Assembly (NCBI GenBank): GCA_013288215.1
Contig: JABDCI010000007.1
Span: forward strand, 1-56,109
From: Verrucomicrobiota bacterium
GTDB taxonomy: Bacteria; Verrucomicrobiota; Verrucomicrobiia; JABWAM01
Length of the DNA: 56,109 nt
Reading direction: 5' to 3'
Shown here: piece by piece, positions 11,650 to 12,456 of the stretch
How the letters are laid out: each line of letters opens with the position of its first letter
Numbering within the stretch: the stretch's first letter is position 1
Program-made: the position numbers and the translations under genes
Notes under the pieces: model-generated
Seen by the model: the letters and a program-made list of their open reading frames with translations, nothing else
Database searches by the model: none
What the model was told of the DNA's origin: nothing

Positions 11650-12456
11650 TTACGCCAACAACCCCAAGACAGTCTGCGCCGATAGATTAGCCTGTCCGAG
11701 CATGGCAACGCTTGCCTGATTCAAAATATTATTTTTGGCCAAAGTCGTCGTTTGCTGTGCGTAATCCGCATCGGAAATTTGTGATGCTGCCTTCTCTGTA
11801 TTAATCTGTTGGGTCTGGATGTTGTCGCTGGTATTGCTAAGCGTAGCGACATCCGCGTTCACTTGCGACCGGCTCGTCGCAATGTTCTGGATCGCCGTCG
11901 TCACATCATTCAAAGCCGCCTGAGCCGCACTCGAGGTGAGAACGTTGCTGGATGCAAGCCCCGCCACATCCTGGCTCGCGTTCGCGATCGACAACGTGTA
12001 ACTGTTGGATCCAGATGCATCGACGGCCGCACTGACGGTGTTGGTGGTATCAAAAACATTCGTGCCATTGAACGAGGCATTTTGAATCTGATTATTGATC
12101 TGATCACGGATTTTTGTGAACTCATCATTGATCGCGGAGCGATCTGAAGCACTGAGTGTTCCGTCGGTCGAACGGACCGCTAACGTGCTCAATTGGCCGA
12201 GTTGTCCTTGGATGACACTCAAATAACCATCCGATGTCTGAGCAAAGGACGTCAAATTCTGCACGTTTTGCGAAGCGGCATTAAGGCCCAGCGTTGTGGA
12301 GTCCAGTTGACTGGCCACAGCCGCACCCGCGGGATCATTCGAAGGAATCGAAAGTTTACTTCCTGAAGCCAGTTGTGTCGTTGAATTTTGGGTGCCATAG
12401 GAAGTAAGGTTCAGATAATAAAGAGCGTTTTGAGAGGATATATCGGAAATGTTCAT
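11650..12456 (-). CDS. fliC: Flagellin-family protein, minimal (D0-D1 only) and divergent
   Basis: LASGSK...DPAG, QTSDGYL, LAV...GTLSASDR, FNG, and C-terminal ISDADYA...NILNQASVAMLGQAN...VLGLL. GGAGG RBS 6 nt upstream. Confidence 0.88.
   Translation of the reverse strand: MNISDISSQNALYYLNLTSYGTQNSTTQLASGSKLSIPSNDPAGAAVASQLDSTTLGLNAASQNVQNLTSFAQTSDGYLSVIQGQLGQLSTLAVRSTDGTLSASDRSAINDEFTKIRDQINNQIQNASFNGTNVFDTTNTVSAAVDASGSNSYTLSIANASQDVAGLASSNVLTSSAAQAALNDVTTAIQNIATSRSQVNADVATLSNTSDNIQTQQINTEKAASQISDADYAQQTTTLAKNNILNQASVAMLGQANLSAQTVLGLLA

Follow-up and report, generated by a model that had tools for sequence, protein, structure and literature searches.

The 56,109-nucleotide contig JABDCI010000007.1 of a Verrucomicrobiota bacterium (assembly GCA_013288215.1), referred to below as the window, carries a gene for a 268-residue flagellin that lies apart from the flagellar gene cluster of its genome. 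Judged by its sequence, this gene is a genuine and fairly ordinary second flagellin of a flagellated verrucomicrobial bacterium. We consider it reasonably likely that its product is a functional FliA-independent minor flagellin which co-assembles with the main flagellin, probably early and in the hook-proximal part of the filament, and that its charge-poor composition reflects a depletion extending over the whole flagellum. About half of flagellated bacteria have several flagellin genes, for reasons that are mostly unknown (PMC6299084). The window gene would be a further member of this known kind, while a coordinated loss of charge from the flagellum would be previously undescribed.

Domains, fold and composition of the window flagellin

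The predicted protein matches both flagellin domains: Flagellin_N (PF00669) covers residues 6-140 (4.7e-20, 72.5 bits against a cut-off of 26.6) and Flagellin_C (PF00700) residues 184-267 (6.6e-14, 52.4 bits against a cut-off of 23). Its best NCBIfam matches are many flagellin models. The FlgL model TIGR02550 gave 76.6 bits, below its cut-off of 127.2. A separate FlgL adjoins FlgK on contig C9 and matches Flagellin_N only, whereas the window protein has Flagellin_C as well.

The AlphaFold2 (AF2) model, calculated from a 40-sequence alignment, has a predicted local distance difference test score of 87.6 and the canonical order of ND0, ND1a, ND1b, a short hairpin, CD1 and CD0. Foldseek aligned it to solved filaments, including 6t17, 9hpz, 5wk5 and 8uxn, with template modelling (TM) scores of 0.85-0.90; the filaments matched come from Kurthia, Roseburia, Pseudomonas, E. 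coli (core), Caulobacter, Shewanella and Leptospira. The best sequence matches in PDB are filament flagellins of 270-285 aa (E-values 1e-23 to 1e-26), and the window protein keeps every one of the 11 alignment columns that are invariant or nearly so in flagellins. The modelled D0/D1 filament fold is thus canonical. Since such D0/D1-only proteins match assembled filaments, a minimal flagellin can be regarded as an ordinary, motility-competent architecture.

The composition is less ordinary. The protein has 4 Arg, 4 Lys and 2 Glu residues next to 16 Asp, 39 Ser, 29 Thr, 28 Asn and 26 Gln. Ser and Thr together make up 25% of it, Ser, Thr, Asn and Gln 45.5%, and charged residues 9.7%, the 16 Asp being retained. 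Its combined Arg, Lys and Glu content (R+K+E) of 3.7% is the lowest among the 983 open reading frames (ORFs) of 250 aa or more that the genome contains; their median is 18.4%. The segment equivalent to flg22 (residues 27-48) reads TQLASGSKLSIPSNDPAGAAVA and residues 87-94 read GQLSTLAV, so that the equivalents of FliC R90 and E93 are Q88 and T91; D40 is replaced by N and the DDAAG motif by NDPAG. The first-pass annotation had described a minimal, 268-residue flagellin with D0/D1 signatures and had suggested structure prediction as a check. The two Pfam domains and the filament-flagellin fold bear out the description, its Arg, Lys and Glu counts were exact and both motif strings were read correctly. 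It had also placed the gene between a GYF_2-cNMP gene and rbfA, and these are indeed its two neighbours.

Flagellar apparatus of the genome

The own genome (G000, in which the window is contig C7) is a 1.61-Mb metagenome-assembled genome in 83 contigs, 52.6% complete. It was compared with a congener (G001, 93% complete) and with two further genera used as outgroups (G002 and G003). The first-pass annotation had presented the gene as an orphan with no flagellar neighbours. This holds within the 56-kb window: only one of its 52 ORFs of at least 100 aa, the flagellin itself, matches the 81 ORFs of the flagellar regions of G000 and G001. Searches of the genome with the FHIPEP, FliA, FliG_C, FliF and FliM models and with the dispersed hook protein FlgE2 gave no match on C7, and the only Flagellin_N match there is the window flagellin. 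It does not hold genome-wide, as a flagellar cluster is located on C9.

Pfam, NCBIfam and genome searches assign to C9 the late genes and regulators FliS, FliD, a 272-aa flagellin, CsrA, FliW, FlgL, FlgK, FlgN and FliA, the basal body and motor proteins FlgI, FlgH, FlgG, FlgF, MotA and a rod-binding FlgJ-like protein, and the export and hook proteins FlhF, FlhA, FlhB, FliR, FlgE and FlgD. The genome therefore encodes the export gate, hook, junction, cap and chaperone that a flagellin requires (FlhA, FlhB, FliR, FlgE, FlgD, FlgK, FlgL, FliD and FliS). FliG, FliF and FliM had no match in the incomplete own genome and are all present in the congener, where FliF lies about 6 kb past the point equivalent to the end of C9. 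Besides FliF, the continuation of the G001 cluster includes FlgB/FlgC-like rod genes and more flagellar and putative chemotaxis genes, recognised by position and N-terminal sequence only. Thus four of the five genes that the first-pass annotation had proposed to look for (flhA, fliD, flgK and fliA) are on C9, while the fifth, fliF, was found in G001 only. Its reading was to fall if a complete flagellar regulon had this gene as the ordinary main flagellin and close relatives shared the composition; the regulon does exist, but the gene is not its main flagellin and the closest orthologues differ in composition, their R+K+E being 9.3-11.6%.

The hook protein also has a dispersed copy. FlgE2 adjoins tyrS, away from the flagellar genes, and has an orthologue in the congener (G001:C15). 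No sigma-28 motif or strong sigma-70 motif was seen upstream of it, only a weak sigma-54-like GG-N10-GC (TTGCA) at -99.

A glycosyltransferase island flanks the cluster flagellin and fliD. Its four Glyco_trans_1_2 paralogues, about 420 aa each, have the common motif LHLQATDPQSVEGGIP. The island is kept in G001, and a similar one lies beside the charge-poor flagellin P0012 (L074). This suggests flagellin glycosylation.

Second-locus flagellin clade

A single-sequence search of the genome contigs gave only distant Eremiobacterota and Acidobacteriaceae matches; close relatives were found by other genome searches. In two of them, with flagellins 68% and 63% identical to that of the window, the order rbfA, divergent flagellin, GYF_2-cNMP is kept. 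G001 has exactly two flagellins, one at the rbfA locus and one in the flagellar cluster. In the maximum-likelihood tree the window gene, its two same-locus orthologues and the proteins P0005, P0004 and P0006 form a clade of six second-locus flagellins with support of 100/100. P0005 represents the genus G002 and is labelled 'Verrucomicrobiae bacterium', so the clade spans the genus and a sister genus, and its members occupy four different non-flagellar neighbourhoods.

The clade is nested among the cluster flagellins of the family and has longer branches than they do. Between the congeners, the window flagellin is 63% identical and the cluster flagellin 83% (FlgK 62.5%, FlgL 61%, ClpC 96%), and the two flagellins of the own genome are only 50% identical to each other. 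By the tree and these identities, the cluster flagellin of the family was duplicated to give the second-locus clade, which evolves the faster of the two.

A functional link to the GYF_2-cNMP gene was considered and rejected. The adjacency is kept in one relative, is interrupted by three genes in G001 and is absent for P0005 and P0004; as it varies in this way, such a link is not conserved. In G001 (C12, L006/L029) the intervening genes code for a surface protein of about 1,800 aa with FG-GAP, Cadherin_5 and Big_9 domains, a methyltransferase and a protein without assignment; the same interval of the window is just a 198-nt spacer. In G002 (C82, L025, 9300-11647) the second-locus flagellin adjoins homologues (39% and 28% identity) of the window genes 18178-19035 and 19077-20537, which sit 6 kb from the window flagellin, past rbfA-ilvE-mcsA-mcsB-clpC. 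Pfam gave no flagellar signal for these two window genes, just sub-threshold zinc-ribbon and HhH matches.

Promoters and leaders

The main and the second flagellin appear to be expressed from promoters of different types. All four cluster flagellins of G000, G001 and G002 (two copies in the latter) are preceded by the sigma-28 motif TAAAGTC-N11/12-GCCGAT about 100-125 nt upstream. Their leaders share a conserved GGAUCACAUGGAAGUGAUC hairpin with GGA in the loop and a AAGGAAGGAG Shine-Dalgarno region. csrA is located directly 5' of the cluster flagellin with fliW beside it, and FliA is encoded on the same contig. The main flagellin thus has a predicted sigma-28 (FliA) promoter and a CsrA-type leader.

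None of the five second-locus genes scanned over 200-230 nt upstream has a sigma-28 motif (TAAA-N15-GCCGATAA type), and the window gene accordingly falls outside the sigma-28-dependent main-flagellin class. Instead, TTGACA-N17-[GC]A[TC]ATT is present in all five, 58-113 nt upstream and across four different neighbourhoods. The candidate sigma-70-type promoter of the window gene matches the consensus at 10 of 12 positions and predicts a 5' untranslated region of about 75 nt; the orthologues have GGAGG or AGGAG at the site equivalent to its Shine-Dalgarno sequence. The promoter and a terminator-like hairpin suggest a monocistronic unit. The leader of the window gene has no GGA hairpin, no AAGGAAGGAG region and no significant structure (z=+1.3). 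At motif level, the genome therefore combines a second flagellin under a non-sigma-28 promoter with a major flagellin of the sigma-28 type, as expected for a minor flagellin of the Shewanella FlaA or Campylobacter FlaB type.

The promoter spacer contains a perfect inverted repeat, CATCAT-N7-ATGATG (12546-12562, minus strand), which was considered as an operator. It is found in none of the four orthologous promoters and is probably fortuitous. G003 has two flagellins. In the 200 nt upstream of the one on C380 (L027, 10273-11109) both the sigma-28 and the TTGACA-N17 motif are missing; the other, on C418, has the AAGGAAGGAG leader and a sigma-28 motif.

Loss of arginine, lysine and glutamate from exported axial proteins

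The orthologues of the window gene have an R+K+E content of 9.3-11.9% and keep the motifs KRLASG, LSELAVR, NSRI.D and AEEST. In the own genome the depletion extends beyond this gene. Compared with G001, R+K+E is lower in the window flagellin (3.7% vs 11.6%), FliD (3.9% vs 9.6%), FlgL (4.7% vs 10.0%), FlgK (4.7% vs 9.3%), FlgD (3.2% vs 8.3%), the cluster flagellin (7.4% vs 9.2%) and FlgE (6.1% vs 7.3%); FlgE2 is still more charge-poor than FlgE (4.7%). FlgI, FlgH, FliS, FliW, FlhA, FlhB and FliA are unchanged.

The shift was evaluated over 185 orthologue pairs, defined as reciprocal best hits between G000 and 835 kb of G001 (about a quarter of its genome), the ORFs being assigned by simply taking the longest. 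The ten exported axial proteins have a mean R+K+E shift of -4.1 points, against +0.04 (standard deviation 1.70) for the 175 others (Mann-Whitney p=7.7e-7), and the most extreme of all 185 pairs is the window flagellin with -8.3 points. G002 and G003 resemble G001 in R+K+E, which indicates that the loss is derived in the species of the window. By these comparisons the charge loss is species-specific but not gene-specific, with the window flagellin as its extreme case.

At 14 positions Arg, Lys or Glu is present in both congeneric orthologues and absent from the window protein, where these positions are now occupied by Gln (7), Asn (3), Thr (2), Leu and Gly. Four of them are in ND0, four in CD1, three in CD0, two in ND1a and one in the hairpin; only two new charges have been gained. 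As D0 forms the buried inner tube and accounts for half of the losses, selection on the exposed surface alone is not a good explanation.

Two general causes were examined and rejected. That secreted proteins in general have adapted, to low pH for instance, does not agree with the mean shift of -0.09 in the crude secreted class (n=38, assigned by heuristic signal-peptide calling), nor with low-charge surface and membrane proteins, which scatter around 0. Saving of biosynthetic cost is a weak candidate: it amounts to only 0.37 ATP per residue, nothing is gained by replacing Glu with Gln, and it is low-copy proteins (FliD, FlgK, FlgL and FlgD) that have shifted most, not the abundant main flagellin or hook. 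Our preferred guess is that the axial proteins, as channel and cargo, have been co-adapting, that a glycosylated filament has been adapting to its habitat, or both.

It is possible, though we put this forward only tentatively, that these shifts mark a coordinated and previously undescribed adaptive state of the flagellum, in which the exported axial proteins of one species have been purged of Arg, Lys and Glu. Such a purge would include the two flagellins and two hook proteins together with FliD, FlgD, FlgK and FlgL; the rod proteins would be affected less strongly. Asp would be kept, Gln, Asn and Thr would rise, and cytoplasmic, periplasmic and generic secreted proteins would be unaffected. 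It might mean a low-charge, possibly glycan-coated filament tolerant to acid or proteases, or co-evolution of channel lining and cargo. The sigma-70-driven window paralogue would then be the least constrained member and so the most extreme reporter.

The phenomenon appears to be rare but recurrent. An exhaustive phmmer search yielded 109 representatives of D0/D1-only flagellins, with a median R+K+E of 12.1% and a 5th percentile of 5.8%; only two have 3.7% or less. In other charge-poor lineages (P0111, P0115 and P0012) the Arg and Glu positions altered in the window protein have been lost independently. The FliD neighbouring the P0012 flagellin is depleted as well: R+K+E of the C-terminal half of FliD is 5.5% there and 4.8% in G000, compared to 11.3% in G001 and G002. 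Judged from these values, there is at least one further lineage in which flagellin and FliD are both charge-poor.

One type IV pilin-like protein (C37:4122-4643, minus strand, N-terminus ...FTVVELMV...) has an R+K+E content of 11.0% versus 15.3% in G001, a shift of -4.3. This is the sole comparable shift seen in a non-flagellar surface-filament or secreted protein, barring one weak pair (37% identity, -7.4).

Proposed role and alternatives

With a sigma-70-type promoter and without a CsrA-type leader, the window paralogue would escape the checkpoint which ties late-gene expression to hook completion. By analogy with FlaA and FlaB of Shewanella, a pool of it could be at hand by the time export changes over to late substrates. 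Exported first, it would be placed mainly in the hook-proximal part of the filament, where it could tune filament mechanics. Its being the most depleted of the axial proteins is attributed to its being the least constrained.

Several points speak against this proposal. Charges absent from the window protein are frequent among the 109 short flagellins (R88 in 92%, E91 in 81%, D40 in 89%, R226 in 79% and E235 in 72%), although R106, E112, R196, D229 and D231 are kept, and the N-terminal IGTN has become SDIS; in view of these changes, the ability of the protein to assemble is an assumption. Hook-proximal placement is taken over from Shewanella by analogy. Promoters and CsrA sites are predicted from motifs in a phylum whose sigma-factor specificities are poorly characterised, and the FliA-independent minor flagellins known to us depend on sigma-54, not on sigma-70. 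Some CsrA control of the window gene may exist, as its Shine-Dalgarno sequence contains GGA. Finally, the C-ring and MS-ring genes are assigned to this species from the congener, its own genome being about half complete.

Other explanations were weighed against this minor-flagellin role. The window flagellin and FlgE2 could form a chemically different hook and filament used under specific conditions, and not the proximal segment of a mixed one. FlgE2 is 67% identical to cluster FlgE and 71% to its congener orthologue, the dispersed copy is the poorer in charge in the hook pair as in the flagellin pair, and neither dispersed gene has a sigma-28 motif. We nevertheless find such a filament unlikely. 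No second cap, junction or export genes were found in the own genome or in the 835 kb of G001, no regulatory motif was found common to flgE2 and the window gene, and a sigma-70-like promoter suggests constitutive rather than conditional expression. It is less likely still that the product has a non-structural role, either as a secreted or surface protein or as a decoy which titrates FliW or FliS and thereby fixes the threshold at which CsrA switches the main flagellin. The polymerisation-relevant D0/D1 helices and the invariant columns are fully conserved, and the composition co-varies with that of the exported structural proteins, which points to the same extracellular or export constraints. 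A decoy would fit the predicted FliA-independent expression, the chaperone-binding CD0 helix, intact in the AF2 model, and an Asn aligned with what we take to be the FliW-binding Asn of Bacillus subtilis Hag; besides, the Hag-FliW-CsrA loop works by stoichiometry and responds to the amount of flagellin (PMC6529632). Nothing favours the non-motility filament that the first-pass annotation had listed among its options, in view of the filament-flagellin fold and the retained columns.

Drift of a paralogue under relaxed selection towards loss of function could account for faster evolution than in the cluster flagellin, for the long branches found clade-wide and for the disappearance of several highly conserved charges. 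However, no damage is seen in the ORF, Shine-Dalgarno sequence, promoter or terminator, an identical sequence is present in a second assembly (P0001), and the terminal branch (0.24) is no longer than those of the orthologues (0.20-0.22). The changes are directional, from Arg, Lys and Glu to Gln, Asn and Thr with two new charges only; they leave the hydrophobic core in place, and confidence in the AF2 model is high. FliD, FlgK and FlgL, which the flagellum cannot do without, have shifted alike, and we see very little room for such drift. We give the least credence of all to the immune-silent flagellin that had been suggested from the substitutions at the R90/E93 positions and in DDAAG, with the charges of the TLR5 hot spot and the flg22 region removed to escape host receptors. 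TLR5 evasion through changes in the hot-spot segment is established for epsilon- and alpha-proteobacterial flagellins. Here FliD, FlgK, FlgL, FlgD and FlgE2, which are not recognised via the TLR5 or flg22 epitopes of flagellin, are equally depleted, and the seven D0 losses are in buried helices, distant from the parts seen by the receptors. Arg and Glu of the hot spot are still present in the main flagellin of the same cell (SRMSELAT), which would leave the cell open to detection. Convergent loss at the positions changed in the window protein is found in the environmental lineages P0111, P0115 and P0012. No host association is known, and a literature search on Verrucomicrobia, flagellin and TLR5 returned gut-microbiome papers only. 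Of the options originally named it is the minor flagellin paralogue that stands, given the separate flagellin of the C9 cluster and the fully supported second-locus clade.

Comparison with known systems

The closest parallel is found in Shewanella (PMC6299084). Its FlaA is produced independently of FliA before the hook is complete and is located near the hook, and the remainder of the filament consists of FliA-dependent FlaB. S. putrefaciens and S. oneidensis have, like the genome studied here, a pair of flagellins, each about 270 aa long and limited to D0/D1; the promoter is of the sigma-28 type for the major one and FliA-independent for the minor one (PMC6299084). FlaA and FlaB filaments align to the window model with a TM score of about 0.86. 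In Shewanella, however, flaA adjoins flaB and is sigma-54/FlrA-dependent, whereas here the minor gene lies at a housekeeping locus beside rbfA with a sigma-70-like promoter; and the position of FlaA near the hook is known, whereas a hook-proximal arrangement is here a proposal.

The cluster flagellin resembles the Hag-FliW-CsrA module of B. subtilis in its fliW-csrA-flagellin row, sigma-28 motif, hairpin with a GGA loop and GGA-rich Shine-Dalgarno sequence (PMC6529632). The window flagellin appears to be outside this module, having neither the sigma-28 motif nor the leader hairpin, although the aligned FliW-contact Asn is kept, and the Bacillus paradigm has no second flagellin outside Hag-FliW-CsrA control. 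Solved minimal flagellins (Kurthia 6t17, Roseburia hominis 9hpz, Caulobacter FljK/L/M/N) belong to the same length class and share the four-helix D0/D1 fold and short hairpin insert; the window protein is about 30% identical to the closest of them and differs in lacking the R and E of LxR(M/L)xEL. The TLR5-evading epsilon- and alpha-proteobacterial flagellins are likewise substituted at the positions equivalent to FliC R90/E93, but here the loss is protein- and flagellum-wide, includes the buried D0 and spares the hot spot of the main flagellin.

Low charge has a precedent in another filament system. In the type IV pilin of Sulfolobus, charged residues amount to 1.5% and Ser and Thr to about 37%, and the protein is heavily O-glycosylated; these properties confer protease resistance and are read by the authors as a response to acidity (PMC7347861). 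The pili of acidophilic Sulfolobus and Saccharolobus (PMC7347861) are comparable in being extracellular filaments with few charges and much Ser and Thr; here a glycosyltransferase island lies by the flagellin and fliD genes, and low charge in flagellins recurs in other lineages. They belong, however, to another filament system and domain of life, total charged residues of the window protein are 9.7% and not 1.5%, and the glycosyltransferase island, from which glycosylation is predicted here, is equally present in the non-depleted congener.

The window gene offers a clean natural example, from the little-studied Verrucomicrobiae, of a duplicated flagellin that has moved out of the flagellar regulon, has apparently been rewired to a housekeeping-type promoter and has been retained across genera. 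More unusual than this is that one species has lost Arg, Lys and Glu in a compartment-specific manner, from its exported flagellar proteins. If adaptive, this loss would provide a simple sequence signature for flagella that self-assemble under particular external conditions. The charged and uncharged orthologues, 60-70% identical, also make a natural test set for the role of FliC R90/E93-type charges in export and polymerisation.

Coordinates and a neighbouring operon

Table 1. Features of the second flagellin locus, the segments of its product and related loci on other contigs. Positions refer to the window unless a contig is given; aa, residues of the window flagellin.
Feature	Position	Strand	Basis and remarks
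Second-locus flagellin coding sequence, 268 aa, D0/D1-only	11650..12456	-	ATG-started ORF, Pfam, AF2, Foldseek
Predicted ND0	aa 3-31		AF2
Predicted ND1a	aa 42-95		AF2
Predicted ND1b	aa 103-126		AF2
Predicted beta-hairpin insert	aa ~127-174		AF2
Predicted CD1	aa 175-228		AF2
Predicted CD0	aa 232-267		AF2
Candidate sigma-70-type promoter, TTGACA-17-CATATT	12540..12568	-	Motif scan, 10/12 matches; ~112 to 84 nt 5' of ATG
Shine-Dalgarno sequence GGAGG	12463..12467	-	6 nt 5' of ATG, read from upstream sequence
Terminator-like hairpin	11621..11640	-	10 nt past stop; 6-pair stem, 4 G-C, T-rich tail; consensus match only
GYF_2+cNMP_binding gene	10639-11451	-	Pfam; neighbour of flagellin
rbfA	12644-13018	+	Pfam; neighbour of flagellin
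FlgE2, dispersed hook paralogue, 426 aa	C43:1879-3159	-	67% identical to cluster FlgE
Glycosyltransferase island (GT2, GT1, four Glyco_trans_1_2 paralogues)	C9:13177-25105 and 28229-29482		Flanks cluster flagellin and fliD

Just past rbfA, the window contains a Gram-positive style operon of mcsA (UVR), mcsB (ATP:guanido phosphotransferase) and clpC (13846-15601 and 15598-18090), which is 92-96% identical to the copy of the congener.

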